The notes under the pieces were generated by a model. That model was not told where the DNA came from. It worked only from the letters and a program-made list of their open reading frames with translations, and did no database searches. Positions 1,377 through 24,587 of a stretch of 64,000 nucleotides of DNA are shown piece after piece; position 1 is the first letter of the stretch; each line of letters starts with the position of its first letter. The translations under genes were made by a program, and so were the position numbers. The DNA is from Squalus acanthias (Eukaryota). The DNA is taken from positions 61,690,001-61,754,000 of the forward strand of contig CM059430.1 in NCBI GenBank assembly GCA_030390025.1. The letters run 5' to 3'.

Positions 1377-2201
1377 TTTGCTGATTGAAAATTCATAAAT
1401 GCTTGAAAAAGTACTAACTACAATGGCATTCTACAATATAATGCTAAAATATGCGCAGAGTCAGATGGGTGGTAATCTTGGGCCAGTTTTTGGTCTCAGT
1501 GGAGAGATTACCAAGGTAAAGGAGACACAAGGAAATCCTGTCGGAGAGAAGAGCAGAAGTTGTTCAAGGTGGGCATTCCTAGAAGAGAAGTGGCAGTGAA
1601 TTAAACACTAATACAAAAGTAAAATACTTTTGATCTGGAAGTTATTCCAGCGAATACATGTTCGCGTCCACAAGTCATAGCAACCAAAGCAACCCCCACC
1701 ACGCGCACACATACACACACACATTGGCTGCTGATATACTGAATGGCCCACGAAGCGGCTACGAGATTTCATATGTCATATATGATTCAACCATTGAACT
1801 GCAACTTGAATTATAAACTATTGATTGTGAGGAAATAAAAATCATTAACTTTTACTATTTTTCCGAATTAACACCTTGTCCTTAATGTTAAAACTTTAGA
1901 TTTATCCAACTGGATTTATGTTGTATTCGCTGAAGGATTCAAAAGCTAACAGGAGAAACAATGTCAACAAATTGTTCGCACTCTCTTGGTCAGTTCAATG
2001 TGAGAACGACATATGATTTATATAGGATAATGTATAATTCAATAGGTTAAAATTTTCGCACAAATAAAGTTTATTACAGGGTAATTTGAATAGTGGGCTA
2101 CAGTGAAGATGAAAGTGCAGAAACCATCGACGTATATTAGAGGTGGACAAATGTGAGAAGTCACACAAAACCAGGTTTTAGTCCAACAGCTTTATTTGAA
2201 A

Positions 2202-2238
2202 TCACAAGCTTTCAGAGCGCTGCTCCTTCGTCAGGTGA
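2202..2238 (-). ncRNA. Minimal type I hammerhead ribozyme, left-arm copy
   Basis: Reverse complement reads tcac-CTGACGA-aggagcagcgctct-GAAA-gc-TT-gtga; one stem II G-C pair has become G-U. Confidence 0.85.
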
Positions 2239-2545
2239 AGTGAAGAGATGCATATATGCACAGCATATATAGTCAGAGAACACTGCCAGATGATTGCAGT
2301 TAATCTTTCCAACTGCCCTTTATCACACCTCGGCAGAGAGATAATCACTGCAATCAAAGGTGTGGATGGTGTCCAAACAGGTCAGTCAAGAAAACATTAC
2401 ATCAAAGACAATGTGGCAGATGCTGGGGTCAGTATGGAAAACAAAAAACTTTTTTTGCTGGAAATCACAGCAGGTCCGGACGCATCTGTGTAGAGAGAAC
2501 AAGCCAACAACGATTCCAGTCTGGATGACTCCAGGTCAGGTGGGG

Positions 2546-4756
2546 TTACATGTAGCGTGACATCAACCCAAGATCCCAGTTGAGGCCGTCCTCATGGGTG
2601 CGGTGCTTGGCTATCAGTTTCTGCTCGAAGATTTTGCATTGTCGTGTGTCTCGAAGGCCGCCTTGCAGAATGCTTACCGAAGATCGGAGGCTGAATGTCC
2701 TTGACTGCTGAAGTGTTCCCCGACTGGGAGGGAACACTCCTGCCTGGCGATTGTTGCGTGGTGTCCGTTCATACATTGTCACAGTGTCTGCATGGTCTCG
2801 CCGATGTACCATGCTCCGGGGCATCCTTTCCTGCAACGTATGAGGTAGACAACGTTGGCCGAGTCACATGAGTATGTACCATGTACCTGGTGGATGGTGT
2901 CCTCACGTGTGATGATGGTATCTGTGTTGATGATCTGGCATGTCTTGCAAAGGTTGCTGTGGCAGGGTTGTGTGGTGTCATGGTAGCTGTTCTCCTGAAA
3001 GCTGGGTAATTTGCTTCGAACAATGGTCTGTTTGAGGTTAGGCGGCTGTTTGAAGGTGAGTAGTGGGAGTGTGGGAATGGCCTTGGCGGGGTTTTCGTCG
3101 TCATCGATGACATGTTGAAGGCTGCGAAGATCATGGCGTAGTTTGTCTGCTCCGGGGAAGTACTGGACGACGTAGGGTACTCTGTTGGTTGTGCTCCGTG
3201 TTTGTCTTCTGAGGAGGTATATGCGATTTTTCGTTGTGGCCCGTCGGAACTGTCGATCGACGAGTTGAGCATCAAAGCCTGTTCTTACGAGGGTGTCTTT
3301 CAGCATCTGTAGGTGTCCATCGCGTTCCTCCTCGTCTGAGCAGATCCTGTGTATTCGCAGGGCTTGTGCATAGGGGATGGCTTCTTTAACGTGGTTAGGG
3401 TGGAAGCTGGAGAAGTGGAGCATCGTGAGGTGTCCGTCTTTGATGGAGATTCGTGTGTCCAAGAATGAAACCGATTCTGAGGAGTAGTCCATGGTGAGTT
3501 TGATGGTGGGATGGAACTTGTTGATGTTATCGTGTAGTCTTTTCAGTGATTCTTCGCCGTGGGTCCACAGGAAGAAAATGTCGTCGATGTATCTGGTGTA
3601 TAGCGTTGGTTGGAGATCCTGTGCAGTGAAGAAGTCTTGCTCGAACTTGTGCATGAAGATGTTGGCGTATTGGGGTGCGAATTTGGTCCCCATGGCTGTT
3701 TCGTGTGTTTGGGTAAAAAACTGTTTGTCGAAGGTGAAGCCATTATGGTCAAGGATGAAGCGGATGAGTTGTAGGATGGCGTCTGGAGATTGGCTGTTGT
3801 TGGTGTTGAGTACTGAGGCTGTCGCAGCGATGCCGTCATCGTGGGGGATACTGGTGTAGAGTGCTGAGACGTCCATCATGGTGAGGAGTGCGCCTGGTTC
3901 AAATGGTCCGTGGGTGCTGAGTTTCTGTAAGAAGTCTGTAGTGTCGCGACAGAAGCTGGGGGTTCCCTGTACGATGGGTTTCAGGATGCCCTCGATGTAT
4001 CCAGAGAGGTTCTCACACAGGGTTCCATTCCCTGATACGATAGGACGTCCGGGTGTGTTGGCTTTGTGGATCTTTGGGAGGCATTAGAAGTCTCCCCCGC
4101 GGGGAGTACGTGGGATGAGAGCGCGTAGGATGCTTTGAAGGTCTGGATCAAAGGTCTTGATAAGTCGAGTGAGTTGGCGGGTGTGTTCTTTGGTCAGATC
4201 TGCAGATAACTGTCTGTAGTTTTCCTGGTTGTCCAGTTGTCGGTATGCTTCTTTGCAATAGTCCATTCTATTCTGTATGACGATGGCTCCTCCTTTGTCC
4301 GCTGGTTTGATGATGATGTTGCGGTTGGTCTTGAGAGCATGGATGGCGTTGCATTGTGCTCGGGTGACATTCTGGACTATCTTGTGAGGGCGGCTGATGA
4401 ATCTGGCGATCATGCATCTCCTGACAGCTTGAGCATACATGTCAAGCTTAGGGCAGCGACCCTCTGGGGGGTCCAATTTGACTCTTTCTTCTTCGGTTGC
4501 TGCACTGCGGGTCCCTCTGTCTGCTGTTCCGGAGCATTGATTGTCTCATTGGGTTCACTGCTGACATCTTGGGATTCATCGAACAATTCCCAGAGCCTCA
4601 TTCTCCTGATGAATTCCTCTGTGTCTGCCGTGAGACCGATGGGGTCCATTTTGGTGTTGGGGCAGAAAATGAGCCCTCGGTTCAGAACTTCGATTTCGTC
4701 TGGTTGAAGGGTGTGGTCGGACAAGTTGACGATGGACTTCCCTGTGGTTGCAACCG
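2546..4756 (-). pseudogene. PLE RT-GIY-YIG ORF, left arm (5'-truncated, disrupted)
   Basis: ORFs 4410-4760, 4084-4476, 2779-3879 and 2546-2836 chain into RT plus GIY-YIG endonuclease with stops and frameshifts. Confidence 0.92.
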
Positions 4757-7076
4757 CCAAACAGATGAGGCAACGTAACTACGCTGCCTACATGCACACC
4801 AAGAACAGGAAGCTTGAGAACCTCGGCATCACCACCAGCAGCAACCAAGCCTCCCCCGGTAACATGATTGCAACAACAGGGAAGTCCATCGTCAACTTGT
4901 CCGACCACACCCTTCAACCAGATGAAATCGAAGTTCTCAGCCAAGGGCTCATTTTCTGCCCCACCACCAAAATGGACCCCATCGGTCTCGCGGCAGAAAC
5001 AGAGGAATTCATCAGGAGAATGAGGCTCCGGGAATTCTTCCATGAATCCCAAGATGTCAGCAGCGAACCCAATGAGACAATCAATGATCCAGAACAGCAG
5101 AGAGAGGGACCCGCAGTGCAGCAACCGAAGAAGAAAGAGTCAAATTGGACCCCTCCGGAGGGTCGCTGCACTAATCTTGACATGTATGCTCAAGCAGTCA
5201 GCAGATGCATGAACGCCAGATTCATCAGCCGCACTCACTAGACAATCCAGAATGTCACCCGAGCACAATGCAATGCCTTCCATGCTCTCAAGACCAACCG
5301 CAACATCGTCATCAAACCAGCGGACAAAGGAGGAGCCATCATCATACAGAATAGAATGGACTATTGCAAAGAAGCATACCGACAACAGGACAACCAGGAA
5401 CACTACAGACAGTTACCTGCAGATCCGACCAAAGAACACACCCGCCAACTCAATAGACTGATCAAGACCTTTGATCCAGATCTTCAAAGCATCCTACGCA
5501 GATTCATCCCACGTACTCCCCGCATGGGAGACTTCTACTGCCTCCCAAAGATACACAATGCCAACAGACCCGGACGTCCTATCGTCTCAGGCAATGGAAC
5601 CCTGTGTGAGAACCTCTCTGGATACGTCGATGGCATCCTGAAACCCATCGTACAGGGAACCCCCAGCTTCTGTCGCGACACTACAGACTTCTTACAGAAA
5701 CTTAGCACCCACGGACCATTTGAACCAGGCACACTCCTCACCAGGATGGACGTCTCGGCACTCTACACCAGTATCCCCCACGATGACGGCATCGCTGCGA
5801 CAGCCTCAGTACTCAACACCAACAACAGCCAATCTCCAGACGCCATCCTACAACTCATCCGCTTCATCCTTGACCACAATGTCTTCACCTTCGACAAACA
5901 GTTTTTTACCCAAACACACGAAACAGCCATGGGGACCAAATTCGCACCCCAATACGCCAACATCTTCATGCACATGTTCAAGTAAGACTTCTTCGCTGCA
6001 CAGGACCTGCAATCAACGCTATACACCAGATACATCGACGACATTTTCTTCCTGTGGACCCACAGCGAAGAATCACTGAAAAGACTACACGATAACATAA
6101 ACAAATTCCATCCCACCATCAAACTCACCATGGACTACTCCTCAGAATCGGTTTCATTCTTGGACACACGAATCTCCATCAAAGACGGACACCTCACGAT
6201 GCTCCACTTCTCCAGCTTCCACCCTAACCACGTTAAAGAAGCTATCCCCTATGGACAAGCCCTGCGAATACACAGGATCTGCTCAGACGAGGAGGAACGC
6301 GATGGACACCTACAGACGCTGAAAGATGCCCTCGTATGAACAGGATATGATGCTCGACTCGTCGATCGACAGTTCCGACGGGCCACAGCGAAAAATCGCA
6401 TAGACCTCCTCAGAAGACAAACATGGGACACAACCAACAGAGTACCCTACGTCGTCCAGTACTTCCCCGGAGCGGAGAAACTACGCCATGTTCTTCACAG
6501 CCTTCAACATGTCATCTATGATGACGAACACCTCGCTAAGGCCATCCCCACGCCCCCACTACTCACTTTCAAACAGGCGCCTAACCTCAAACAGACCATC
6601 GTTCGCAGCAAATTACCCAGCTTTCAGTAGAACAGCGACCACGACACCACACAACCCTGCCACAGCAACCTCTGCAAGACATGCCAGATCATCAACACAG
6701 ATATTATCATCACACATGAGGACACCACCCACCAGGTACATGGTACATACTTATGTGACTCGGCCAATGTTGTCTACCTCATACATTGCAGGAAAGGATG
6801 CCCCGGAGCATGGTACATCGGCGAGACCATGCAGACACTGCGACAACGTATGAATGGACACCATGCAACAATCGCCAGGCAGGAGTTTTCCCTCCCAGTA
6901 GGGGAACACTTCAGCAGTCAAGGAAATTCAGCCTCCGACTTCAGATAAGCATTCTCCAAGGCGGCCTTCGAGACACACGACAACGCAAAATCGTCGAGCA
7001 GAAACTGATAGCGAAGTTGTGCACCCATGAGCACGGCCTCAACCGGGATCTTGGGTTGATGTCACGCTACATGTAA
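4757..7076 (+). pseudogene. PLE RT-GIY-YIG ORF, right arm (5'-truncated, disrupted)
   Basis: ORFs 4711-5241, 5356-5985, 6130-6339 and 6786-7076 show the same motifs as the left arm with different stop codons. Confidence 0.92.
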
Positions 7077-7420: not shown

Positions 7421-7677
7421 TTTCAAATAAAGCTGTTGGACTATACCTGGTGTTGTGCGACTTCTCACATTTGTCAACCCCAGTCCAACACCGGCATCTC
7501 CAAATCATAGCTACTATATTAGAGGTGATTCGGTAGAAAGCTTAGAACAACTGCGAGAATTAATGAAAATAGTTTAACATTACAGAAGTCAGCATTAATG
7601 TTTTTGTATTATGTGAATGTATTATGTGTGATAGTAGCTAACAGATGGCTTAGATTAGGCCATCAGGATTCTGCAAC

Positions 7678-9325
7678 ATCACTTGGAAGAAGCACTGAGA
7701 GTAGCAAGGGCACTGAATATACTCTGGGTGGGGAACTTCAATATCCATCACCAAGAGTGGCTCGGTAGCACCACTAATGACAGTGCTGGCCGAGTCCTGA
7801 AGGACATAGCTGCCAGTCTGGACCTGCGACAGGTGGTGAGAAAACCAACACGAGGGAAAAACCTACTTGACCTCATCTTCACCAATCTAGCTGTCGCAGA
7901 TGCAAGCCTCCATGACAGAATTGGTAACAGTGACCACCTCACAGTCATTTTTGAGACGACGTCCCATCTTCACACTGAGGACATCCTCCATCGTGTTGTG
8001 CTAATTGTGATAGATTCAGTTCATGCAGCACTTACTCATCAATTACCTGCTCACTGATGCTCAGTTTGGGTTCTGCCATGACCAATTGGCTCCCGACCTC
8101 ATTACAGCTCTGGTCCAAACATGGACAAAGGAGCTGAATTCCAGAGGAGAGGTGACAGTGACTGCCCTTGACATCAAGGCAGCATTTGACCGAGTGCGGC
8201 ATCAAGGAGACCGAGTAAAACTGAAGTCAATGGGAATCGGGGTGAAAACTCTCCATTGGCTGGAGTCATACCTAGCACAAAGAAAGATGGTTGTGGTGGT
8301 TTAAAGTCAATCAGCACAGCCCCAGGACATCGCTGCAGGTGTTCCTCAGGCCAGTGTCCTAGGCCCAAACATCTTCAAGTGCTTCATCAATGACCTTCCC
8401 TCCAACATAAGGTCAGAAATGGGGATGTTCGCTGATGATTGCGCAGTGTTCAGCACCATTCACAACTCCTCAGAAAATGAAGCTGTCCATGCCCGCATGC
8501 AACAAGACCTGGACAACGTTCAGGCTTGGGCTGATAAGTGGCAGGTAACATTCATGCCACACAAGTGCCAGGCAATGACTATCGCAAACAATCGAGAGTC
8601 TAACCACCGCCCCTTGACATTCAACGGTGTACCATCGCCGAATACCCCACCATCAACATCCTGGGGGTCACCATTGACCACAAACTTAACTGGACCAGCC
8701 ACATAAATACTGTGGCAACAAGAGCAGGTCAGAGGCTGGATATTCTGCAGTGAGTATATCACCTCCTGACTCCCCAAAGCCTTTCCACCATCTACAAGGC
8801 ACAAGTAAGGAGTGTGATGGAATACTCTCCACTTGCCTGGATGAGTGCAGCTCCAACAACACTCAAGAAGCTCGACACCATCCAGGACAAAGCAGCCCGC
8901 TTGATTGGCATCCCATCCACCACCTTAAATATTCACTCCCTCCACCACCGGCTTACTGTGCCTGCAATGTGTACCAACTACAAGATGCACTGCAGCAACT
9001 CGCCAAGGCTTGTTTGGTAGCACCTCCCAAACCCGCGTACTCTTCCACCTAGAAGGACAAGGGCAGCAGATGCATGGGAACACCACCACCTCCAAATTCC
9101 CCTCCAAGTCACAGACCATCCTGACTTGGAAATATATCGCCGTTCCTTCATCGTCGTTGGGTCAAAATGCTGGAACTCCCCCTACCTAACAGCACTGTGG
9201 GCGTACCTTCACCTCACAGACTGCAGCGGTTGAAGAAGGCGGCTCGCCACCACCTTCTCAATGGCAATTAGGAATGGGCAATAAATGCTGGCCTTGCCAG
9301 CGACGCCCACATCCCATAAATTAAT
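7678..9325 (+). mobile_element. CR1/Jockey-group LINE, second family (family B): endonuclease end, RT and 3' end, internally deleted
   Basis: LLDLIFTN...SDH, ALDIKAAFDRV, MFADD, MEYSPLAW; 3' end ggcaataaatgctggccttgccagcgacgcccacatcccat is shared with other copies in the window. Confidence 0.88.
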
Positions 9326-9404
9326 AACAACAATGTGGATTACCGAGTCATCTCGATAACCAATATTGTTTGAAGTGAACCCAAGCCCACACCAGACAAT
9401 CCCG

Positions 9405-9600
9405 TAATAAAACCAGACACTGCTGGAAACACTTAGCAGGTCCGGCAACGTCTGTGGAGATAGAAACAGAGTTAACATGAAGTCATCGACCTGAAACGTT
9501 AAATCTGTTTCTCTCCCCACAGAGCACTCCCGACCCGCTGAGTGTTACCAGCATTTTCTGTTTTTATTTCAGATTTCCAGACCACCGTATTTTGCTTTTG
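9405..9600. mobile_element. Short fold-back remnant of a second PLE-related terminal repeat with a partial hammerhead
   Basis: Inverted copies of the ctgctgag..ccagcattttctgtttttatt / acagatgctgcctgacc-type motif flank agtcatcgacctGAAAcgTT. Confidence 0.7.
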
Positions 9601-9779
9601 TTCAATCATTTCCGTATTCAGTATATCTGTTGGATGGTACAATGACTGAGAGAGAAAACAAGACACATCGGATACAGTGATTAGATAATGACATGGTTAT
9701 CAAATCCCTACGATTATTAGAGGAAGGAAAGACAGAACGATAAGTAATTGAAGAAAATGCTGGAAATACTCAGCAGATT

Positions 9780-10310
9780 ATGAACTGAAACTGTTGAACT
9801 CGATATTGAGTCCAGAAGGTTGTAAAGTGCCTAAGATGAGAGGCTGATCCTCGACCTTCCGTTGAGCTTTATTGAAACCGTGTAGGAGGCCGAGAGCAGA
9901 GAGAACATAGTGGGAGTGGGACAGATAATTAAAATGGCAAGCGGCCAGAAATTCAGTGTCATGTTAGTGGGCTGAATGGAGGTGTTCAACAAAGCGTTCA
10001 CCCAATCTGCGTTTGGTCTCCCCAATGTAGAGGAGACAACAACAGAAAATTCTGGAAACACTCAGCCGGTCAGGCAGCATCCACTCTCTCCAGGGAGTGT
10101 TTCCTGCATTTTCTGTTGGTACTTCAGATTTCCAGCAACCGCAGTATTTTGCTATTGTAGTGGAGTCCACATTGTTTGCAGCGAATACAGTATACTAAAT
10201 TGAGAGAAGTACAAGTAAATTGCTATTTCACCTGGAAGGAGTGTTGGGGCCTTGGATTGTGGGTAGGAGATGAATGGACAGGTGCTGCATCGCTCGTGCT
10301 TGCACGGGTA
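9780..10310 (-). mobile_element. Second PLE family, GIY-YIG endonuclease C-terminal remnant
   Basis: Minus strand reads NLVYCIRCKQCGL / LYIGETKRRLGERFVEHL ... LGTLQPSGLNIEFNSF; split by a 120-bp insert at 10036-10155. Confidence 0.82.
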
Positions 10311-10546
10311 ATGGTTCTGCTATTGTAATTTACACCTCCTCTAGACCCATCTTTTGTTTTTTTACTTTTTTACGTTTCCCATTACCACCCTTTATGCCTT
10401 GCACCATCATTCTTTTTGTCATTTAATCACTCCTGCCTTCCAATCTATCACGGACCTTCCCGTCCCCTTTGCCCGTTCACCGCCACTTGTATAAAAGCTT
10501 AAATCGCTAACTTTTTCCCGTTCTAACGAAAGGTAATCGACCTGAA

Positions 10547-11304
10547 TCGGCCGCTTGGGAGCGGGTCAGCTTGTTCCCGGGTTCCAGTCCCGCCCTCAAC
10601 TGCATCCGGCCCACAGTCGTGATTTTACGTTAAGTGGCCTTGTGAGTCAGATGAAGTCATTTGATGACGCGTTGTCCGCCGGTTTTCTTAAAGGGACCAC
10701 ACACAATTTTTTTTGACTGCTGATTTCTCAGTGTTTGACAGCATTGAGCTGCTGCAAACACTGACAATCACTGTACAAACGCGATCTCTTGCACCTAGGC
10801 TCTCCAGCGACACCCTCCTTAGGCTAGAACGGATGGCAGCTGCAAGTGAGGTTAGAGAAGCGACCTGTCACTAGTGAGAGAGGTTCTCCCAATGAGGTGG
10901 GACTAGACATCCAATTTAAAACTTGTTCCCTACATAAAACTGTAAATGCATTAAAAATGATTTCCCCAGCATTTTCTTACCTCTGAAACTCACCAGTGCA
11001 CCATTGAATCCTTCACACCACTTCTGCAGCTGTCATCAATGTAGAAACATTACAGCAGACTCACAACACGCCACACTTACCTGGCGTGGTGTCCAGACGT
11101 CGGGAAGCCCGAAGCAGAAGCGACAAAATTGAAAAAGAGCCTGTTAACAAGTATCAAGTACCTGTTAATAGGCAGGTAAGTGGCTATAATCCTCTTCCCG
11201 CTGCTCGGTGTCGGGTCCATGCGCAAATCGGGAACCAACACTTGGGAAGATTGATTGGAGGCGGGTTGACAGCGGGTTTCCTGAGCGCCGGCAAAATTTC
11301 GGCC
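10547..11304. mobile_element. MITE-like / non-autonomous DNA transposon inserted into a PLE terminal repeat
   Basis: The hammerhead-like gttctaacgaaaggtaatcgacctgaa stops at 10546 and the terminal repeat resumes at 11305 (aaatctgtttttctccacagatgctgcctgacc). The right end aaatttcggcc resembles the GGCC/GGGC..AAAT TIRs of other MITEs here; the left TIR is degenerate. Confidence 0.55.
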
Positions 11305-12137
11305 AAATCTGTTTTTCTCCACAGATGCTGCCTGACCTGCTGAGTATTTCCAACATTTTCTGCTTTTATTTCAGATTTCCCGTATCCGCAGTATTTTACT
11401 TTTTTAACAGTAAGCAATTACCTGGTTATGAGACCCTGGAAAAAACGAGTTGTTTGATGAGTCTGAAATTAAAAACAGCGAGAATATGGAAAAGAGAAAG
11501 AAATTCAGGATGCTGTGTTCTTATTTTGTATCAATGGAAGTGACTTTATAAAATATTAGTGTTGCATCCCAAACAAATCTTTATTGTTTTTGTGAATTAA
11601 AGGAAAGAGAGCGTTAATGTTACAATGTTAATATTCTGATCCAAGCAATGCAATTCAACCCCATAATTGCAGAAACGGAAGTGGACTAAAGAGACGCTTA
11701 TAGCACACAAGGACGCCATTTGGTCCATTGCTGGCTTAATGATAGAGCAAACCCAAAACATATCCGTCATCCTTTCGCTTCCTGTAACCCCTTATCTTCT
11801 TCTCCTTTGAATACTTATTAACGTTTCTCTTAAAATCAGATTATGATTTTCACTGTTATTCGGTGTTGTTGAAGGAGCAGAGGTACGTTTTAATACATTT
11901 ATTTGCACCTACCAATTGCAGACACATTTTATACCATGAGCGAATCCAATTGAAACGAAGGTCTGTTACGAAATCATATTTTAACAAGACAGAACTGAAT
12001 TTTCGCATATATTTGTAGAATAATTATTAGGTAACTGAAGTTCTTTGGAATAAACGTCCGCATTGTGGGATTCAATGATTACAAAGAAAATGTGAATCAG
12101 CTTTGTTTCCTGTATGCTTTATTTTTAAAAAGCATCG

Positions 12138-12417
12138 CAGGTGGACGTAAAAGATCCCATGGCATTATTTCGAAGCAGAGCAGGGGAATTATCCCCGTGT
12201 ACCTGCAATATTTATCCCTCAATCAACATCACTAAAACAGATTATCTGGTCATTATCACATTGCTGTTTGAGGGAGCCTGCAGTGAACAGATTGGCTGCC
12301 GCGTTTCCTACATTACAACAGTGACTACACCTCAAAAAGTAGTTCATTGGCTGTAAAGTGCTTTGGGACGTCCTGAGGTCGTGAAAGGCGCTATATAAAT
12401 GCAAGTCTTTCTTTTCC
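12138..12417 (+). mobile_element. Deu-domain SINE (AmnSINE1/SacSINE1-like), 5'-truncated
   Basis: ggtggacgtaaaagatcccatggca ... cattggctgtaaagtgctttgggacgtcctgaggtcgtgaaaggcgctatataaatgcaagt matches my recollection of the DeuSINE body and tail. Confidence 0.75.
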
Positions 12418-12974
12418 TTATTGAACCACCTGCTGAAATGGAGGCATTCCTGGAAATGGAGAAGGGAAGCTAGATTTTTACATTAAGGGAGGACCAGATT
12501 GCAATACATCCACAGCCTGGGTTGAAGTTTCTCCGACCAGTTGAATTAAAGACTGGATTCCAATGGCACCCTGTTATAAACAGCCTGGCATCCGTTGTAA
12601 ATGAGAACTAAGTTCTAGGTTCTATCTTAGACAGCTGTAATCATGAGAAACGTAGTAGGGTTTCCAAGCTTGTCTTTGGGTAGCGAGCGGAGTGCAACAC
12701 AGAAAGAAGAAGATTGCCAAAGTAGGGACTTGCGCTACTGGGTCCATTTTTTTTCTTGCTGTGACAGTCCACATCTAATGAGGACAACGGGGTTTGGAGC
12801 AACTGTGTAGAGCAATATTGCTGAGATTTACGATAGGCTTTGTAAAAAATTGACTGTTTAAGGAATAAAACAAGGAAGCAAGTGCCTTAAAACTGGCACT
12901 GAAATTATGATGAGTATTTGGCGCATATTTAAATTAAATATGGGAAAAAGGTAGAACAATCAACATTTTATTTT

Positions 12975-13060
12975 TAAAAAAAGCAAATACCGCAGATGCT
13001 GGAAATATGAAATAAAAACAGAAAATGCTGGAAATACTGAGCAGGTCAGGCAGCATCTGT
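12975..13060 (-). repeat. PLE-family-2 terminal repeat fragment
   Basis: aaagcaaataccgcagatgctggaaat...gaaaatgctggaaatactgagcaggtcaggcagcatctgt, the same motif as at 9405-9600, 11305-11410 and 28832-28964. Confidence 0.75.
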
Positions 13061-13819
13061 CGGCTGTTTGAAACAGTTGTCCAATTAGTCCCCCTCCCCT
13101 GCTCTCTTCCGGTAGCTCTGCAATTGTTTTCTTTTTTAATTAATAAATACATAAATACTTGTGTTTATGTGCGTTTGTGTTTATATGAACAGAGTCATAG
13201 GCAACGTGTTCTTAATGTAGAATCTGTGCCTTACTCCTATAATGTTATAAAGGAAAATACTTGCACCCTAAGTGTTGTCTTCCATTCAACCCTTGTTTTG
13301 ATGTTCAACTGCTGAATACAGGCAGCCTGTGAACAGACGACTTATCTGGAAGTACCTCCACAGTTATGTTCCAGATAAATCACTCTTGTCTGCATCGTAA
13401 ACAGGATACATCCCGTCTACTTCCTCATCCTTTCCCCACAAATCAGAATATTGTCCAATTCATCACACTTGTTGCGCTTTTTAACTATAATTTGAATTGC
13501 AGACCTGTCTTCTGCCCAGTGTCCTTTTGCTGAGATTATTAGGGGGCGTGTCATGATGTTCGTAAGCTGAACTACACAAAATCTCCTCCATGATCGCCTC
13601 ACACCTGCAGTTCGATGGTTCAACATACTGTAACAAGGGATATCATTAATTAGCAGCATTCCTCTTTAAATAATTAAAATTATGGGGAAATTCAAGAAAA
13701 AATTCTTCACTTTAGCTAAATTCTGTATACGTTTTAACTAACTGGCCGTAAATTACATTTTGGGATCCCGCATGACCAGCAGAACATTGTCGGAGTACAT
13801 GGAGACACTTCGTGGAAGG

Positions 13820-14577
13820 TGTAGCTTTTAAAAGCTCTTTATAATAATATGTCCGGGACTACACAACCCACTCTGTGTACAGGTATATTGTGTATAAGTA
13901 AAACAGGTTTCTTAAGCATTAAACATCCAGTACAAAGAAGTAATACTTAACAAGAAGATAGTCGGAGTTTGTTCATTGAACCCCGGCATTCCTTCTGAGT
14001 GACTGTGGCGTGGTCTCTTTAACTCTCGCTATGTTCTGTTGACTGAAGCTTCTCATCCTCTGGTTTCGAGCTGCTTTCAGTGTTCAACAGCTGTTTCTTT
14101 ATACCTTTTTTTCCTTCATAAACATAGCAATTTGCAGCTGCTTGGGCCGTCTCACCATTCTGACCTTCACAAGTACGGTCTATGATTCCCTCCCCTTTTC
14201 TGCTGTGAGCTTTGAGTATGAGAACTTTTACATCTTTTGCCTTTCCCATAGCCCATTATCTAGACTGGTCTGAAACTTCAGCGATAAGGGATGTTAGGTA
14301 TTGAAAACCCTTTATCTTACTTTGAGACTTAATTAATGTTTTGTCCTCTGGTTTCTTGTTTTTAATATAACAGAAAATCTACACTACCTCAGCACTATTC
14401 TTGCAGTTAACATAATGTTGGCTTAATTTCACCATCATGCTTTTGTCGCAGCCATTCGCCATTTTATACAGGCTTTTTAGGTTTTTAACACACAATTTCA
14501 CATATTATAGTTATTTCAAAATGGCTATAGAATCTTAATAATGTTTACTAAATCCTACAGGTAAACTCTATCCTACA
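13820..14577 (-). repeat. 3' LTR
   Basis: Begins tgtagcttttaaaagc and ends ctctatcctaca (TGTAG/CTACA inverted termini); colinear with 20334-21859. Confidence 0.93.
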
Positions 14578-14620
14578 GATCCCTACGTTGAGGGCGAGGC
14601 ATTTTGCCGACCCCTCAAAA

Positions 14621-16080
14621 TTAAAATCTTACATATGGGTTTGTTCTCCCACGTTTATGTAACTCTAAGATATTCTGGGTTGTGATCATATTTAAACGCG
14701 ATCGGGTTTTGTACATTAGGTGTTTCAGGTGGCAGGTGTAAACTAGTAAACGTATCAGTACTACAAGTTGGGTGATGACAAGTACATGGGAAATTATCCT
14801 AATACAAGAGGAATTTCCATGTTTGTCCCTATGTTGCATTATTAGTCCTAACAAGTTTTGACTCCCTACCTTTTGGCATTTATGTTTAACTGGGTAGATC
14901 CTAATCAAACTTCTGATCTTACATCGTTCAAAGTCTTACTACATGCGTTACATATATCAAATACACCATCATTACAAGTTGGAGAACTACCAGAGCGTGT
15001 GAAATAACATGGACCTGTGGGCGTGCTGATATATTAACCCCAATATCCCACCAGTGTGAGTTGTCCCTTTTGCTATCAATTTCAATATCTATTCTCGAGT
15101 TGTCTTGTTTCAAAACATAAAAATACTTTAGGGAGGAGTTCAGTCGCATCACGAGCTCACTGAAGCCCTCAGACAACAAGGGAATGTATTACCCGAATTG
15201 TGCCACATAATTTTGCAGCTCATACTTAAGTATCTCATTTACTGTCAGTTTCACTTGAGCATAGGTTTTGATATTGATTAAAACGTGTTGGTTGATGGGA
15301 CAGGCCCTGTTAGACCCGTAAAGCATGGTAGTTGCAGAAGTAGTGACACAGGAGGCACCACCAACATCATCTCATAGTGGATCCGTACTGGTTTTCCCCA
15401 TGCTCTGTTATCTACAAAACATAATTATTACAGTTACACGTTATAATTCAGTCTTACAATCATTTCACGTGACATTATAGTTTAACATCTAATCCACAAA
15501 TCATGGACTTAAAAGATTCCCCAGATCTCTTTCACTCGTATCCATCTTGTGGATAATTGTTGCTAAACATGATTTCTCCTTAGCCTTCAATTATCCCAAT
15601 CCAAATTCCTCAACTTCAATTTCAATCCCTCTAACAGGTACCAGTGTGTACCTCTATTCTGATTGTTTCATTACTTGGATAGTTTCTCGATGGAGTATGT
15701 GTCAATGCTTTAAAAGTTGTCTCGCTCTCCTGAGCCACATAAACCATTTCATGTCTTGCCGTTGTCAAGTAACTGAGTATGTCTGAGAGCCGTTCTTCAG
15801 TGCAGATTCACCACGCATTTGCGGATGGAACTAGCTTCATATGTAACAAATCACATTTGCACACTCATAGCGGTACCTCAATATCGTGCCACATGTGTCC
15901 TCCAATACAAACCATTCTCGGGCTTTCAAGTATCTTAACAAAAGATTGTAGTCGTCTGAACATCTTTGCTCATCTTCCTCTGCAGGTTCCCGATGTCTTG
16001 GGTAGTGGCCCGACTATCAAATTCAGTTTTCCTAAAAGGTTAATTATACACAGGCACAAAAATGTCTCCAAGAGAAAGCT
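14621..16080 (-). pseudogene. env-like remnant with C-terminal transmembrane segment
   Basis: Lies just upstream of the 3' LTR; Cys-containing GGASCVTT..Y..CP segment, heptad-like helix, then WWDIGVNIS and hydrophobic VISHALVVLQLVMMVYLIYV. Heavily decayed. Confidence 0.55.
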
Positions 16081-17654
16081 ATCAATTTACTATTCTTAGC
16101 GACACTATCCTGACTTTCATTAGAAAGTTTTGAAAATTCCCAATCAGTAGTGTAATTCTCCTGTTTCTATCTTACACCATCAATCACTTCCTCTCTCCAT
16201 TTTACACAACCCATTAATTACCATTCATAGCTCATTCATGAGCCCTGGAGGAACTTTACTGTCCAGTACGATATTTAAAATTGAAAACATAGATCAAATG
16301 TTCTCACTTATTCCAAGTTATTATCACTTTTTACGTATCATTATTTTCGAGGATCTTTTATTTTCCCAAAAGTAACCAAATATATAGTGTCTGAGTTCAT
16401 TTTGTCATTTAAAAACTATCCCAAAATCCAAACAGCAGTACTGTTGAACTGATAGGTTTTGTCAACGTTCAATTTCATTTCTATCCAATTTATCTTATAA
16501 TTTCCAATTTCAGAAACAAGTGATTGCCAGGCTAGATGGCTTACACAGTGTTTTAACATTAGAGACAGAAGTGCTGCAAATAGTTTACAAGGTAACTTCC
16601 ATATAACAAAAGAAAGAAGAGAATCCATTGTGACTCTGCTTAAGAGCCTTGCGGTTAATTTTTCAAATCATAATTTTCCTTCTGTCACTGTGGGGAAATA
16701 TTAACTTAAAATTAAGAAACTTAAATTTAATAATGCCCAATATATTTAAATTTAATTTAGCAATACGAAAGTTGTTGCTTGGTGAACTTAAACAACTGTC
16801 AGTGGAAAGGGTTAATTCGTTTGCAGGTTTTAAGAAGGCAGAGTGAAACATTGTCAGGCGCACGCAATTGTGTCACATCACGTAAATTTAAAAATCTTTC
16901 CCAATCGAAAAAGACAGTTGTGTTTTCACACTTTAACTAAACACGAACAGAACAGATAAAACAAAACAAAGTAGCCCATGCTTGCAGGAAACAGTAAATT
17001 ACGTCATATTTCTGATTGTCCTTTCTTCAGATGCCTTTCCAAATGACTGTAAAAACATTGAATACAACTGGAGAAAAATTAGTTTTTCACATTTAAAAAA
17101 ACAAATCAAGCTGCCTTGGAAATTTCACCACAGCAACCACGACTCCAAGGTTAAATTTTAGACTGAAACTTAATCTTTTGTTAAACAAACTTTTTGTTGT
17201 TCTCCTCAGTTTTTACACACCAGCTTAACTTAAATTGCAGTTCAAAGTTTTTTTTTAAATTCTGGGTGCACAATCTTATTCGCACATTCTTAAACTTCCA
17301 AAATCCAAGAAAAGATAAAAGTTTTTAAATGCATTTGTTTTACACAGAGAAGTGGGTGGAGCTAAAATACACACAACAGACATTCTTTTAAAGACAGACT
17401 TTTCAGACAAAAGGAATACTGTAACTTCTTAAACATTTATAGTCAGGAAAACCTTCACACTTTAACACACACTTTCACACACACTGAAATTCCAGATTTT
17501 TTTTTCAGGTTCCTTAACTCAGCAATCTTGTGTTTTATTTGTCTCGGCACTGATGATAATACCGTCCATGTCGGTAAAACTTTAGGTTTCTCTCTCTTTT
17601 CTTTTCTTTTTTTAAATAGATGTCTCAGCAACTTAGGGGTTACTTGAGTTCAAG

Positions 17655-18250
17655 TTAGGACACCAACTGATTTCTCAATATATGCGGCACCGTCAAGCGG
17701 GGGTTTTCCATGTCACTGCTGACATAGGCTACGGGGGCTGCTGTAGGATGAGGTGGTAAGGGACGATATAATTCTCCCTCAGACGGAGGTAGGGAATATG
17801 TCGGCAGTGCTATCTGCTCAGGCTTCTTTATAGCAAACACCGAGTGGTCGTCTGAAATTTGCCCTATATCTCCCGGTTTAGACTCAACCCAAAAACAGTT
17901 CTGATTGTAATCTATAATGGCTGTCATTCCCCGTAGGGTGTCATTGCCAAGTATTCCCATTTCGTTGATCATACACATATATAACGGATCAGTGATTTTT
18001 ATGGGGAAGGCCTCAAGGGAAATACTAACTTCCTCTCCTGGGTCTGCTGGTGCCTGTGAGCCGGTGACTCCTGTTTTTATGAAGCTACTTTTGTCTATTT
18101 TAAGCTGGCGTTCAGGGTCTGGGGAATGCAGGATTGTAACAGATGAACCTGGTGTCTATTAGCATAGTCTGCTGTCGGCCCCCAGGCAGCAAAGCTGAGA
18201 CCACCGGTCGACCATGGCCATCTCGTCTGAACCCCACTTCAGACTAGGCC
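17655..18250 (-). pseudogene. pro: Retropepsin aspartic protease
   Basis: Minus strand near 18135-18170 gives MLIDT(+1 nt)GSSVTIL, the DTG active site with a frameshift; downstream GILGNDTL motif in ORF 17655-17978. Confidence 0.82.
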
Positions 18251-18319
18251 GATTGGACCAGATCCCGTCTAAATGGCAGTTGGGTTGTTGGAGCAATGGT
18301 GGAGGCGGGAATGACGAGC

Positions 18320-20279
18320 TCATATTTGGAGCCACGAGCACCCCGACATCTGGGTCGATGCAAGAGTTTGCATAATACATGACAATTTCTCCATACATGA
18401 GCCTAGGGCGTCTATTTTACTTTCCATTGGATCAGGTGAATGGGACGGACCATATCGCGAGTAATTATTATTATTCCTCCCACCTCCAGAGCCTATCTGT
18501 CTAGGACCTCGGCAATCCATTGCAAAGTGTCCCACCTTTCCACAGTTACACCAGATCAAGGTTGCTTACGGGGTGGTGACGCTGGGAAGGCCTGGGGTCC
18601 CTCAACCACATGCACTGGCGACTCTGTTGTTGGTACCTGAACCTGAGTTTTAGCGTAGTCCCATGCAGCGTTAGCATCTCTTTAAAGATCTGTCCATTGC
18701 GAATGTGGCTGACAGTGTGCCTTAAGGCTGCTCGCAGTGAGGCCTGAATATTCTTTAAGTATATTTTCTTAAATTCTGCCTCATTCTTCCCGTTTAAGAC
18801 ATTATCATTGGGGCGTGCCTGCATCATCTCATAAACAGTGTACAACCGATCCCCGAATACAGCAGGGGTCTCATGAGGCCCTTGTTCAGACTGGTTTACT
18901 TTATGAACCAGATCAATAGTGTCCAAGCCCAGAGCTGTTTGTATAGTTGTGATTAATTTATTCAGGGGGTACCACACATTAAAGGCCTTGAAGGGCAGAC
19001 TGGTCCGTAGGTCTGGGGTCAAGGCAGACAGTATAACATTTTTCTTGCCACTGTCCTCAAATTAGGATGGTTGCCTTAGCTCTATGGGGCATGTTCGTGG
19101 GTTAACTGGTCCGAATTGCTGGACACATGCCTATAGTTCTGCATAGTTCAGGGGCTGGGATCGTTCATAAGTACCCGCCCATAGCATTCCTGGGTGGGCT
19201 GCCGCTGGTTGTGCTCCTGCTTTTGCCTGGTCACCGTCAACAGCTGGTGGCGCGTTAGGAGTCACCTGGGTGCGAGTCAGAACATTAACTGGGGCTTTAA
19301 AGGGTGCAGGTTCGTCCACTGAGGCTTTTATGATATTGTTATCAGCATAGGCTGGGGGCCTCTCAGCTAGGTCGATGGCGGTATACAAAACGGGGGCCTT
19401 TTGGGAAGGGTGTAGTAAGGGAGGATATAGTTCTCCGCTGAACCCCTCGCATTGTTTATCATAACTCGCGGGCGTGGGGGTGGTGGGGGTCTACTCCCGT
19501 GACTGCCGCTATTAAAGACCGTTGTTGACTCAGCTGGTTTTCCAACTGTTGTATAGTAAGATGACACTGCCTGTGGCCCGACTGCCCTTTGGGGCTGCTG
19601 AAGAGCCTCTCTTCGGGCTCCTCGTGAATCGTTTAATTGTCTGGTGAGACCGTCATTGTCTTTTGTTAAGGAGGCTACCTGACACCTAGCCTCCTCAAGT
19701 TTCTGCACTGCAGTGCCGGCGTGAACTGCATTAATACTCTGTTGCTGTATTATTGCTGTCGATGCAGCGACCAGGCACTGAAGAACTTCATTTTTACTTT
19801 TTAAACTCTACAGCCTCTTTTTCCAAGTTTGTCTTCTCGCCTGTTAACGTTTTTGTTATCTCCGTTAACGTTAGATTCTCTTCTATCAGCCGTAGCTTGT
19901 CTTTTTCTAATGTATCTAACTTGGTTTTATTATTTTCCATCTCGAGGAGGGTCTACTTATCTTGCTCTACACAATACACTGCCGCATCGGCCATTATTTG
20001 CACTGTCCTATCTGACTTCCATTTCTTCTCCTTAACTTGTTTCTCAATGAACACAACAACGTCCTCAAAGGATACTCTCTTATCCTTTATTAGACATTCT
20101 ACTAGTAACTTCTGTAACTGTGCAACCTTGCACTTCATCATTAACTTCGTTATAAAGTTTACAAAAAAAATCTCACTTGACATTCTGCTGTACGTTAAAG
20201 AGACACTATCTGTTAGATAACCTAACTTTCCACAAGGACATTCATAGTAAATCATAGAAAAATCCAAGCAAAAATCCAA
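18320..20279 (-). pseudogene. gag: gag-like region: N-terminal coiled coil, Pro-rich linker, capsid-like segment, CCHC knuckle
   Basis: Heptad-like LEMENNKTKLDTLEKDKLRLIEENLTL and QKLEEARCQVASLTKDNDGLTRQL; PPAY motif; capsid-like QGPHETPAVFGDRLY; degenerate knuckle WCNCGKVGHFAMDC. Multiple stops and frameshifts. Confidence 0.78.
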
Positions 20280-20312
20280 GTGCCTGCCTTATGCACAATA
20301 GGCCTGGTTTCA

Positions 20313-20331
20313 GGCCCACGTTGGGTGCAAA
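20313..20331 (-). other. Primer binding site, tRNA-Lys1,2-like
   Basis: Minus strand TTGCACCCAACGTGGGCC lies a few nt downstream of the 5' LTR and matches TGGCGCCCAACGTGGGGC at 15 of 18 positions. Confidence 0.8.
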
Positions 20332-20333
20332 TC

Positions 20334-21859
20334 TGAAGCTTTTAAAAGCTTTTTATAATAATTTGTCCGTGACTACACAAACCACTCTGGGTACAGGTAT
20401 ATTGGCCCAGAAATTCGGGTTGGAGGCTTCCCGCGGGCACAAGCCCCCAACCTGCACTTACATAGCGCGCCTGCCATTGTGCTGTGGGCCCACGTGGGAT
20501 TCCGATCCTGGGCCTCCTCCAGCTGCCAGTGTGCAGTGCTCGCGTATCCCTGCAGCGCAACTAGTTTGCAGCGTCCCCTGGGATCACGTGCACCATGGGG
20601 AGCCAATCAGACCAGGGAATCTCCATTCATAGATTTGACAGGAAAACCTGTCAAATCTATGAATAGAGATCGGCCGCAAAACATAAGTAAAACTTCAAAT
20701 AAATTTAAAAAAGCAATCACATTTTTAAAATAACTATACATTACATAAATTAACTATTTTAAACAAAAATTTAAATTTTTGAAAAATTAAATTAAAAGTT
20801 TTTAACGGGGCTAAAAATAAACTTACCTTGCTTTAAAGTATTTAAAAATGATAAACCTGTGGAAAAAATGTTTCAATTTTACTTAATTCACCTCTTACCT
20901 TGTTAAAAGCAGGCCTTGCACCTGCTTTTTCCACGCGCAGCTGCTAGGGACTTAGCCGCACTGAGAAACCTGTAAAAAAAGCTGAAGTTCCAGGTCTACG
21001 CGTTGCCTCTCCAGCGCACGCATTTGACCTGTGAACCCCTTCCTTCAAGGGAACAGAAGTTCCGGTTTCCAGCGCACGTGCAGTGCATGCGCGAAAGCGG
21101 CACTTTCGTTGGCCTTACGGGTGAGTACACAGCGCGTACTCACCTGTGGGGACCCGGATTTCTGGGCCATTGTGTATAAGTAAAACAGGTTTATTAAGCA
21201 TTAAACATCCAGTACAAAGAAGTAATACTTAACAAGAAGATAGTCACAGTTTGTTCATTGAACCACGGCGTTCCTTCTGAGTGACTGTGGCGCAGTCTCT
21301 TTAACTCTTGCTGTGTTCTGTTGTCTGAAGCTTCTCATCTGCTGGTTTCGTGCTGCTTTCAGTGTTCAATAGCAGTTCCTTTATACCTTTTTTTCCTTCA
21401 AAATACATAGGAACTTGCAGCTGCTTGGGCTATCTCACCATTCTGAGCTTCATAAGTACGGTCTATGATACCCTCCCATTTTCTGCTGTGAGCTTTGAGT
21501 ATGAGAACTTTTACATCTTTTGCCTTTCCCATAGCCCATTATCTAGACTGGTCTGAAACTTCAGCGCAAGGGATGTTAGGTATTGAAAACCCTCTATCTT
21601 ACTTTGAGACTTAATTAATGTTTGGTCCTCTGGTTTCTTGTTTTTAACAAAGCAGAATATCTATGCTACCTCAGCACTATTCTTGTAGTTAACATAATGT
21701 TGGCTTAATTTTACCAACATACTTTGGTCTCAGCCATTCGCCATTTTATACAGGCTTTTTAGGTTTTTAACATACAATTTCACATATTATAGTTATTTAA
21801 AAATGGTTATAGAATCTTAATAATATTTTCTAAATCCTACAGGTACACTCTATCCTACA
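20334..21859 (-). repeat. 5' LTR (interrupted by a 765-bp MITE)
   Basis: Matches 13820-14577 on both sides of the 20404-21168 insertion. Confidence 0.93.
20404..21168. mobile_element. MITE, PIF/Harbinger-like
   Basis: TIRs GGCCCAGAAAT/ATTTCTGGGCC; ATT duplicated at 20401-20403 and 21169-21171; the empty site ggtatATTgtgtataag is present in the other LTR near 13882-13898. Confidence 0.9.
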
Positions 21860-22399
21860 AAGGGATCTGACCTATTTCGCTGTCGTAGAAGTGTAGGCGA
21901 AATAAAGTAAAGCGCCAGTATTTAGAAGTACACACCTGCTGTTTGATCGAGATTTTGTATAATGTGGATACATATAAAGAATGGATCAGATATAGCGTCT
22001 TCAGGCGAAGCCATTGTACATTCTAGATGTTAAGAAATGTTACAGGGCAAATATGACGTTTAGTTGCGGTTTTTGTGACCATTACGCGTATGCGGCGCTT
22101 TCACAGGCTTTTGTAAAGGACAGAGCTAAACTTAACACTTGAACTGCTGCTGTGTAGAGGTGAATTGATGAGCCACATTCTTCATTTAGCTGGAGAACGT
22201 GGTGCGCTCGTGTCACTATTTCCGAACATGTTTAAGTACTGCAATAACCACACGGCCAAAAGCTTCGCTATTTCCTTAAATTTCATCAGACTACGTGATA
22301 AGTCGAACATACAGGCATTTCACGCTGCTATATCTGAACTGCTTACTATTCCGGTATCGGGTTATTAAATTAATCCTTATCCCAATTATAGATTATCCA

Positions 22400-22727
22400 A
22401 TTTGGAAGCAGTTGGTCGGTAACCAAATGTCACAGACTTAAAATAATTGGCAAAAGAGCTAGAGGGTAAATTAGGAGAACTGTTTTCATACAGAGGTTTT
22501 TTAAGAGCTGGAATACACTACCGGAAAGACTGGTGGAAGCAGATTCCATATTAACTTTCAAAAGGCACTTGGAGATGTACTTGAAGAAGACTAATTTGCA
22601 GGGTTATGAGGAAAAAGCTGGGGTGCGGGAGTAAATTGGACAACTCTTTCAAAGAGCCGGCACAGGCACACCCGGCCGAATGGCCTCCTTCTGATCTTAA
22701 GATTGTATGATTGCACGATTCTATGAC
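22400..22727 (+). mobile_element. CR1 3'-end fragment
   Basis: CR1 ORF2 C-terminus and 3' UTR ggccgaatggcctcct followed by degenerate attctatg repeats. Confidence 0.8.
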
Positions 22728-23049
22728 TATTATTAGATGTGGAAATCGAATGTAAAAGATAACACAATTACAGTTAAAGGTTTCCTGAAAACTTGCTGCA
22801 TTTTTTCGGACTGTGTCACAGGGGAACATTTGGTATTGCAAGTATGAGCATTCTTGAAGATGGCTACAGTCATCCAACCCAGAGAGTTAGGGAAACTATT
22901 CTGTTCACCTTACCACGTTTAAATTCAGAGTAAAACTTCGCATTCAAACGCCACAAGGGGAATACGAGGCAATCAGTTAAAAGTTCGCTTTCAGTCTAGC
23001 GGACGCATTTATAGGTCCAAAATCATACCCGAATTATATTATTTTTTGT

Positions 23050-24587
23050 ATTCGTTTATGGGATGTGGGCGTCGCTGGCAAGGCCAGCATTTATTGCCCA
23101 TCCCTAATTGCCCTTGAGAAGGTGGTGGTGAGCCGCCTTCTTGAACCGCTGCAGTCCGCGTGGTGAAGGTACTCCCACAGTGCTGTTAGGCAGGGAGTTC
23201 CAGGATTTTGATCCAGTGACGATGAAGGATTGGCGATATACTTTTAAGTCAGGATGGTCTGTGACTTGGAGGGGAACTTGGAAGTGGTGGCGTTCCCATG
23301 CGTCTGCTGCCCTTGTCCTTCTAGCTGAAAGAGGTCGCGGGTTTGGGAGGTGCTGCCGAAGAAGCCTTGGTGAGTTGCTGCAGTGCATCTTGTAGAAGCT
23401 ACACATTACAGCTACAGTACGCCGGTGGTGGAGAGAGTGAATGTTTCATGTCGTAGATGGGGTACCAATCAAGCGGGCTGCTTTGTCCTGGATGGTGTCG
23501 AGCTTCTTGAGTGTTGTTGGAGCTGCACTCATCCAGGCAACTGGAGAGTATTCCATTACACTCCTTGCTTGTGCCGTTGTAGATGGTGGAAAGTCTTTAG
23601 GGAGGCAGGAGGTGAGACACTCACCGCAGAATACCTAGCCTCTGACCTGCTCTTGTTGCCACAGTATTTATGTGGCTGGTCCAGTTAAGTTTCTCGGTGA
23701 ATGGTGACCCCCCAGGATGTTGATGATAGGGGATTCAGTGATGGTAAATGCCATTGAATGTCAAGGGGCGGTGGTTAGACTCTCGCTTGTTGAAGATAGT
23801 CATTGCCTGGCACTTCTGTGGCGCGAATGTTACCTGCCACTTAACAGCCCAAGCCTGAACGTCGTCCAGGTCTTGTTGAATGCGGACATGGACTACTTCA
23901 TTATGTGAGGATTTGTGAATGGCACTGAACACTGTGCAGTCATCAGCGAACATCCCCTTTCTGACCTGATGTTGGAGGGAAGTTCATTGATGAAGCAGCT
24001 GAAGATGGTTCGGCCTAAGCCACTGCCCTGAGGAATTCCTGCAGCGATGTCCTGGGGCTATGATGATTGATTTTCAATCTCCACAACCATCTTCCTTTGT
24101 GTTAGGTATGACTCCAGCCAGTGGAGAGATTCTCGCCCCCAATTCCCATTGACTTCAGTTTTAATAGGGCTCCTTGATACCACACTCGGTCAAATGCTGC
24201 CTTGATGTCAAGGGCAGTCACTCTCACTTCTCCTCTGGAATTCAACTCCTTTGTCCTTGTTTGGACCAAGGCTTTAATGAGGTCGGGAGCCGAGTGGTCT
24301 TGGCAGAACCCAAACTGGACATCAGTGAGCAGTTTGTTGGTAAGTGTCGCTTGATAGCACTGTCGATGCCACCTTCCATCACTTTGCTGAAGATTGAAAG
24401 TAGACTGCTGCGGTGGTAATTGGTTGGATTACATTTGTCCTGCTTCTTGTGGACAGGACATACCTGGGCAGTTTACCACATTGTCGGATAGATGCCAATG
24501 TTGCATCTGTACTGGAACAGCTTGGCTAGAGTCGCAGCTAGTTCTGGAGCACACGTCTTCAGCACGATAGCCGGGATGTTGTCAAGT
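23050..24587 (-). mobile_element. Family B LINE (RT + 3' end)
   Basis: Reverse-complement homolog of 7678-9325; MFADD, YKMHCSNSPRLL. Confidence 0.88.

Follow-up and report, generated by a model that had tools for sequence, protein, structure and literature searches.

A provirus on the minus strand of a 64,000-nucleotide stretch of the Squalus acanthias genome (GCA_030390025.1, contig CM059430.1, positions 61,690,001 to 61,754,000; hereafter the window) is best explained, with a probability of about 0.75, as a dead copy of a multi-copy, pol-less recombinant endogenous retrovirus (ERV) that likely owed its copying to trans-acting, pol-bearing relatives, whose long terminal repeats (LTRs) and primer-binding site are the same. 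Its LTRs, primer site, gag, and protease derive from a retrovirus family of the class III/snakehead-like grade, primed by tRNA-Lys, and its pol and most of its env have been replaced by a 2.7-kb module. This module (17634-14928) comprises approximately 2.2 kb without homology, followed by the end of a second, diverged env.

Recurrence of the pol-less form

The source genome searched comprises 3.7 Gb, and 100 loci were retrieved from it; the denominators are 80 loci for the protease junction, the first 60 for reverse transcriptase (RT), 26 for the gag-pro junction, and 100 for the module. In 7 of the 80 loci, the protease joins the same downstream sequence at the identical letter as in the window. 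Two of the seven (L002 and L004) are duplicates of the window integration, with the same flanks and the same target-site duplication (TSD), and the remaining five are independent insertions, with their own 4-bp TSDs where these could be resolved. Because the exact junction recurs at independent insertions, the pol-less form itself was copied, which answers in the affirmative the question, raised in the initial annotation of the window, of whether other copies share the pol replacement. Of the first 60 loci, 19 (18 insertions) have RT after the position where the homology stops (17787). Searches with the natural frames of these pol-bearing relatives detected neither RT nor RNase H nor integrase within the window element, as the initial annotation had proposed, and its description of a non-autonomous derivative of a deep-branching retrovirus is supported.

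First-look searches of the genome, whose counts are not copy numbers, gave 1298 candidates with the LTR and 281 with gag-pro; the 3' part, searched in two halves, gave 2066 and 3198, and the env piece as a protein query gave 8476. The ratio of nonsynonymous to synonymous substitutions (dN/dS) among pol-less copies is 0.58-0.61 for gag/protease and 0.64-0.77 for the module env piece, compared with 0.13 (RT) to 0.23 (capsid) among pol-bearing copies; this contrast is consistent with selection that acted on the helpers but not on the passengers.

LTR distances range from 0.023 to 0.044 in eight independent module-bearing copies and reach 0.072 in the window copy and 0.124 in one duplicate of the same insertion. 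A distance of 0.072 corresponds to 16 to 160 million years depending on the rate, and we claim no insertion date because this range is wide and duplicates of one insertion differ (0.072 vs. 0.124). The insertion and its flanks (window 7515-23605) occur three times on one contig (the window itself, with L002, L004, and L116-L119; G000:C6 at 61.70, 62.13, and 68.00 Mb). The flanks of the three copies are 85-93% alike and their TSD is identical, and by sequence comparison they are to be read as one integration followed by segmental duplication. A miniature inverted-repeat transposable element (MITE) at the position of window 13552 is common to the two other duplicates and absent from the window.

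The shared module

At least 1 kb of the module is present in 64 of the 100 loci, 79-92% alike, and the primer site upstream of it is of the Lys type in 11, Leu in 12, and Arg in 7 of these loci, none being found in 34. The three LTR types that surround it show no blastn match to one another, and each generates 4-bp TSDs. Since the synonymous divergence of the module env piece is equal within and between types (0.088 within Lys copies, 0.084-0.094 between types), the exchanges of the module were close in time. In Arg-primed copies, the env piece has a longer 3' continuation, and a short gag-like start precedes the module, which suggests that Arg-primed elements may be its older home. The source of the module was not found; the region 17634-15400 yielded no env, surface subunit, gag, or Rfam match, and its one 105-aa frame has no homologue, which is weak evidence.

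Rather than a passenger, the module might be a selfish cis-acting RNA segment, with a packaging, dimerization, or export signal favoring its LTR carrier. This would agree with its roughly tenfold excess over gag-pro in the first-look candidates (3198 and 2066 vs. 281) and with its occurrence in three LTR types at one divergence, but deletions and interruptions fall in many different parts of it from copy to copy, no Rfam match was obtained, and the abundance could reflect a single very active donor family; we regard this explanation as unlikely.

Several module carriers show further rearrangements. In one subfamily (L131, L132, L135, and L136), a 930-bp piece holding a decayed RT lies between the equivalents of window positions 17351 and 17276, and shorter forms of it occur in L127, L129, L133, and L134. 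L127 and L128 also contain, at another place, a protease-RT-integrase scrap lacking RNase H, together with a further env piece. The possibility that the module is itself a provirus in decay, with an RT that some copies have retained, was considered and rejected, as the 930-bp RT piece shares 86-87% identity with another family (L146 and L160), whose env is only 30% like that of the module. On these identities, capture is likelier, in one direction or the other. L112 has a Leu primer site and, 1 kb downstream, an Arg-type leader, and is thus a further mosaic among the module carriers. The search of sequencing runs listed no RNA run with a match. In run X17 (presumed RNA), the summed contig depth over window 14884-17322 is about 1e5, compared with about 1e3 in the sister run and in DNA of that organism. 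This depth might mark tissue-specific transcription of a module-bearing family; contig depth cannot rank expression, and the observation is a lead only.

Anatomy of the window copy

The features of the element are collected in Table 1. The two LTRs are 92-93% alike, both with TG..CA ends, and the paired LTRs and the 4-bp TSD of the initial annotation were recovered, the 5' LTR being interrupted by a 765-bp MITE that had gone unnoticed. The MITE entered after the provirus had integrated. It is very abundant, with relatives in many of the retrieved loci, contains an internal 24-bp palindrome (20619-20670), and is, we assume, Harbinger-like. The tRNA in the genome that fits the primer site is Lys-CTT, in agreement with the Lys primer proposed earlier (15 of 18 letters).

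The capsid, CCHC, and protease regions recognized in the initial annotation were likewise found: the Gag_p30 match is weak (E 0.058), the zinc knuckle has an E value of 0.0014, and the protease shares 74-80% identity with its counterpart in the pol-bearing relatives. A heptad test confirmed the coiled coil predicted in gag for two relatives with fewer disruptions (p 0.005 and 0.02) but for none of the three window fragments (p 0.055-0.38). AT-rich DNA does stand in place of pol, with a GC content of 0.34 in 17786-16300 vs. 0.43 across the window, but its length without protein homology is approximately 2.2 kb (17634-15400) and not the 1.5 kb given at first. The supposed env-like remnant is indeed env sequence, but it consists of three scraps from two envs, one from the second env (34%) and two from the own env of the family (73-87%). 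The window copy is a dead fossil of a non-autonomous mosaic ERV.

Among 25 window frames of at least 150 aa, no host gene was seen. The rest of the window (553-5985 and 25620-52890) presumably consists of decayed RT frames of long interspersed nuclear element (LINE)-like and Penelope-like type. In L009 (G000:C8:127.44 Mb), tandem units of approximately 3.7 kb combine the LTR, a MITE, and an internally deleted env with an open frame of 362-379 aa.

Table 1. Features of the provirus in window coordinates. TM, transmembrane subunit.
Feature	Position	Strand	Remark
TSD AAGG, left	13816..13819		From sequence
3' LTR	13820..14577	-	758 bp, TG..CA; 1298 first-look LTR candidates in genome
Polypurine-tract region	14578..14592	-	3 letters between purines and LTR TG; unlike the foamy GGG-TG junction as described in PMC5210030
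End of the family's own env and 3' untranslated part	14593..14834	-	Membrane anchor, TM aa 399-426, 80-87%
Scrap of the family's own env	14835..14929	-	TM aa 143-176, 73%; joined to anchor by internal deletion, also in L009
C-terminal third of TM, second diverged env	14934..15399	-	34% to family env; E 4e-21; profile E 9e-29; 3' end of module
AT-rich part of shared module	15400..17634	-	No protein or Rfam match; common to several LTR types
Linker, 152 bp	17635..17786	-	Lys-primed copies only; weakly gag-like: 73% over 72 nt to L025, 4.6 bits vs. control 0.7
Protease	17787..18252	-	Frameshift near catalytic motif; homology to pol-bearing copies stops at 17787
gag	18341..20207	-	Heptad-rich N-part, capsid, one CCHC at ~18512-18550; several frameshifts and stops
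Primer-binding site, tRNA-Lys(CTT)	20313..20330	-	15/18 letters; 18/18 in duplicate L004
5' LTR, split by later insertion	20334..21859	-	From sequence comparison
MITE	20404..21168		765 bp, terminal inverted repeats, 3-bp ATT duplication; absent here in 5' LTRs of duplicates L002 and L004
TSD AAGG, right	21860..21863		From sequence

Pol-bearing relatives and phylogenetic placement

The pol-bearing copies encode protease, RT with a YVDD motif, tether, RNase H, integrase, and an env whose cleavage site reads RQKR, and their Gag has a zinc knuckle (zf-CCHC, E 8e-7). The combination of tether and second RNase H is a feature common to all retroviruses. In all 12 loci (of 26) in which the junction was recognized by pattern, gag and pro-pol lie in one frame with TGA between them. 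The junction reads UGA-CGG in L033, L035-L037, L039, L040, L059, and others; this context belongs to read-through type II and is listed for alphavirus and coltivirus, but it is not among the retroviral contexts in the portion of PMC13517186 available to us. Directly outside the family LTR in L006 (7811-8947) lies a 379-aa intronless frame with Vanin/CN-hydrolase domains, and the genome (G000) harbors, at many sites, members of several young retrovirus families whose long pol frames are open over ~1185 aa.

The closest Pol proteins are those of Xenopus, Rhinophrynus, Pyxicephalus, and Latimeria (55-58%). The initial viral scan with a single RT gave no match, nor did the phage collection; among 15 viral records the best RT match was L061 (47%), a record of 10,688 nt that we take as snakehead retrovirus (SnRV) from its size and RT motifs. 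RT identity is 58% to frog ERVs, 35-40% to foamy viruses, 36-37% to three RTs with the loki motif, and 37% to the Gypsy-type P0031.

The autonomous relatives allowed the RT tree proposed in the initial annotation to be built (403 columns, 36 rows, LG+G4; a shorter alignment had 240 columns). Two short rows were removed from the first tree and 24 rows from later trees, and the tree has no named ERV-L/S, fish foamy-like, or alpha/beta/lenti rows. It places the family inside the canonical retroviruses (99/99), groups it with Xenopus, Rhinophrynus, and Latimeria Pol (95/95), and leaves it outside gamma/epsilon (100/100), loki (100/100), and the Gypsy/caulimovirus outgroup (100/99). When a Pol grouping with SnRV or class III was examined, the family appeared as sister to ostrich and caecilian Pol at 88/77. 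The family is thus a canonical retrovirus outside gamma/epsilon with a gag-stop-pro-pol read-through layout, in a tree without alpha/beta/lenti rows, and we file it in the class III/SnRV-like grade without a firm sister.

An env-bearing Gypsy/Metaviridae element, which the initial annotation had kept open, can practically be dismissed. Gypsy-type Pfam labels do fall on the tether and the integrase zinc finger, and F-type env is known in invertebrate Ty3/gypsy elements, but the RT lies outside the Gypsy/caulimovirus outgroup and inside the canonical retroviruses, is just 37% identical to P0031, and has YVDD, and a second, retroviral RNase H is present.

We consider it very improbable that the element is a non-autonomous lokiretrovirus similar to zebrafish BHIKHARI (coiled-coil gag, no pol), which would make it the first loki lineage in a cartilaginous fish and which was one of the two readings originally offered. 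An F-like Env fold, a dual RNase H, and a heptad-rich Gag would suit it, as would the automatic naming of the closest Pol proteins as NYNRIN-like; loki integrase is near CGIN1, loki RNase H groups with that of foamy viruses, and the RNase H of the family reaches 53-58 bits against loki loci. Nevertheless, a union of the family with loki, represented by three RTs assigned by motif, is rejected with an approximately unbiased test p value (p-AU) of 0.0005 on 403 columns, though not on 240 columns (0.055), the loki CPFGY-NSPAEF motif is absent from the family RT, and the RT is closer to SnRV (47%) and frog ERVs (58%) than to loki loci (36-37%). Furthermore, Wang and Han detected loki in 0 of 3 chondrichthyan genomes, and BHIKHARI Gag is described with a glycine-rich patch, whereas the family Gag has a CCHC knuckle.

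The other original reading, in which the element stems from a foamy-like (spuma) retrovirus infecting cartilaginous fish, is improbable, though less so. The Lys primer and the 4-bp TSD are shared with foamy viruses, the best PDB match of the RT is foamy Pol (E 4.5e-44), the best match of the Env model in VIA is foamy Env, and the tree leaves a union with foamy viruses unrejected (p-AU 0.07-0.11), with the family outside the foamy clade in the best trees. It is the anatomy that disfavors this reading, because a CCHC is present, whereas foamy and fish foamy-like Gag has none, pol follows in the frame of gag behind UGA without a separate start, and the GGG-TG junction is absent; foamy viruses are described with a Gag that has no Cys-His box and with GGG-TG at the junction of the polypurine tract and LTR (PMC5210030), and with a Pol that has its own start in another frame (PMC8278194). 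In addition, the RT is just 35-40% identical to foamy viruses, and the family is nested with frog and coelacanth ERVs at 95/95 in a tree without a fish foamy-like reference.

Envelope of the family

The initial annotation suggested an F-type env and a comparison with fusion proteins. Sequence and profile searches with the TM, in Pfam, PDB sequences, and profiles, matched no fusion-protein family, but the structural model of the TM of a relative resembles F proteins, and it is tied to the window by the homology of the window's env piece. The 427-aa natural TM frame of L040 has 36 homologues, and the ten that were looked up come from sharks or rays (7), frogs (2), and an unnamed source (1). In its model, a beta-rich middle separates a long helix from a second helix, which is followed by an anchor. 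Foldseek returned 31 matches at E<=0.001 (best 2.9e-7), and the matches listed were exclusively F proteins of metapneumovirus, respiratory syncytial virus, measles, parainfluenza, and henipavirus, together with foamy Env. In VIA, foamy Env ranked top (Z 7.9, 229 aligned), above plain coiled coils. The Env TM of the relatives is therefore predicted to fold like paramyxo/pneumovirus F and foamy Env.

A search with the env of SnRV found one near-identical homologue only, the profile comparison with the family env aligned only the cleavage site (E 0.14), and the single-sequence model of the SnRV TM was poor (pLDDT 42), its best match, measles F at E 0.49, being no evidence.

Discussion

The proposed origin of the window copy begins with entry of the module by template switching of reverse transcriptase between co-packaged RNAs. 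The recombinant RNA would have kept the LTRs, primer site, and polypurine tract of the Lys family, and the Pol of a Lys-family helper would then have packaged, reverse-transcribed, and integrated it, with gag, protease, and env pieces carried as passengers. The Env of the parent family would fuse membranes as an F-type (class Ib) protein. Afterwards, the window copy gained its MITE and was duplicated together with its flanks.

Several results weigh against this reading or parts of it. Trans-mobilization by a helper is inferred from the missing pol and the intact cis ends, dN/dS values below 1 may stem from CpG decay, and the parent of the module env was not found in 18 pol-bearing loci. As to the placement, SnRV is no resolved sister of the family in RT trees, a union of the family with SnRV is neither recovered nor rejected (p-AU 0.10-0.11), like the union with foamy viruses, and an 18-row "Huo" set chosen in this analysis is rejected as a single clade (p-AU 0.017). 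The family RNase H scores 67 bits against REV, 53-58 against loki, and 34 against SnRV, and the integrase is closer to gamma/epsilon (124-136) than to SnRV (102). With regard to the envelope, the TM model is middling (pLDDT 68, pTM 0.34, TM-scores 0.21-0.32, Z <8), and Pfam found neither F (PF00523) nor a foamy Env family in 42 members, one of which matches Baculo_F at 0.0011.

Among known systems, the family resembles SnRV in its coiled-coil Gag, which has a single CCHC, in the stop codon that precedes an in-frame pro-pol, in YVDD, and in a long env with a basic cleavage site, and differs from it in the stop context (UGA-CGG vs. UAG-GGC), in an env that cannot be aligned beyond the cleavage site, and in that unnamed frog and coelacanth ERVs are nearer (56-58%). 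Clade Huo and class III ERVs (PMC6001957), among them the SnRV-related CmiERV lineage I of the elephant shark (PMC4422223), likewise belong to the closest known systems. Harlequin and other human mosaic ERVs (PMC4724089 and PMC5753468) also have a recombinant internal region from several families between LTRs of a single type, recur at sites whose flanks differ, and are moved by intact "midwife" relatives; the pol-less copies described here show the same mosaic with different flanks and the same LTR at both ends, the pattern set out in PMC4724089. The present family differs in being class III-grade instead of class I, in having one module behind three primer types, and in carrying a mostly non-coding cargo. 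Lokiretroviruses and BHIKHARI share with it an F-like Env, dual RNase H, coiled-coil Gag, and pol-less derivatives, the last described for zebrafish ERVs (PMC7947760 and bioRxiv 10.1101/2024.03.25.586437), whereas the family RT lies outside the loki clade, the sister of all other retroviruses, and lacks its motif, and Gag has a CCHC. Foamy viruses share the Lys primer, the 4-bp TSD, and the predicted F-like (class Ib) TM fold (PMC11468914; PDB 8RM1), in contrast to the CCHC Gag, in-frame read-through pol, 758-bp LTR, and lack of a GGG-TG junction of the family.

A more far-reaching version is that the 2.7-kb module is a selfish RNA, present in shark genomes in what are probably thousands of copies, and acts as a satellite-like ERV parasite that hops between families with different LTRs and primer tRNAs by a cis-acting replication advantage, and that the F-type Env of its host family, outside loki and foamy viruses, is the ancestral retroviral envelope; we hold this to be doubtful.

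For the classification of such mosaic elements, our results mean that the primer-binding site, TSD length, coiled-coil Gag, and F-like env do not suffice. The two points of interest are a canonical RT lineage with an F-type envelope and the non-coding module common to three ERV types. The literature search found no paper on such a module in sharks and none stating an F-type Env for SnRV-like or class III ERVs. F-like Env has been published for loki and foamy viruses (PMC7947760 and PMC11468914), and Wang and Han left separate envelope acquisition by loki and canonical retroviruses undecided. With its many carriers, the module offers a large natural record of how ERV families that use different primers recombine. 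The predicted F-type Env in an RT lineage that is canonical but not foamy, together with the solved F-like foamy Env, favors an F-type ancestor that was later replaced in gamma- and beta-type viruses.

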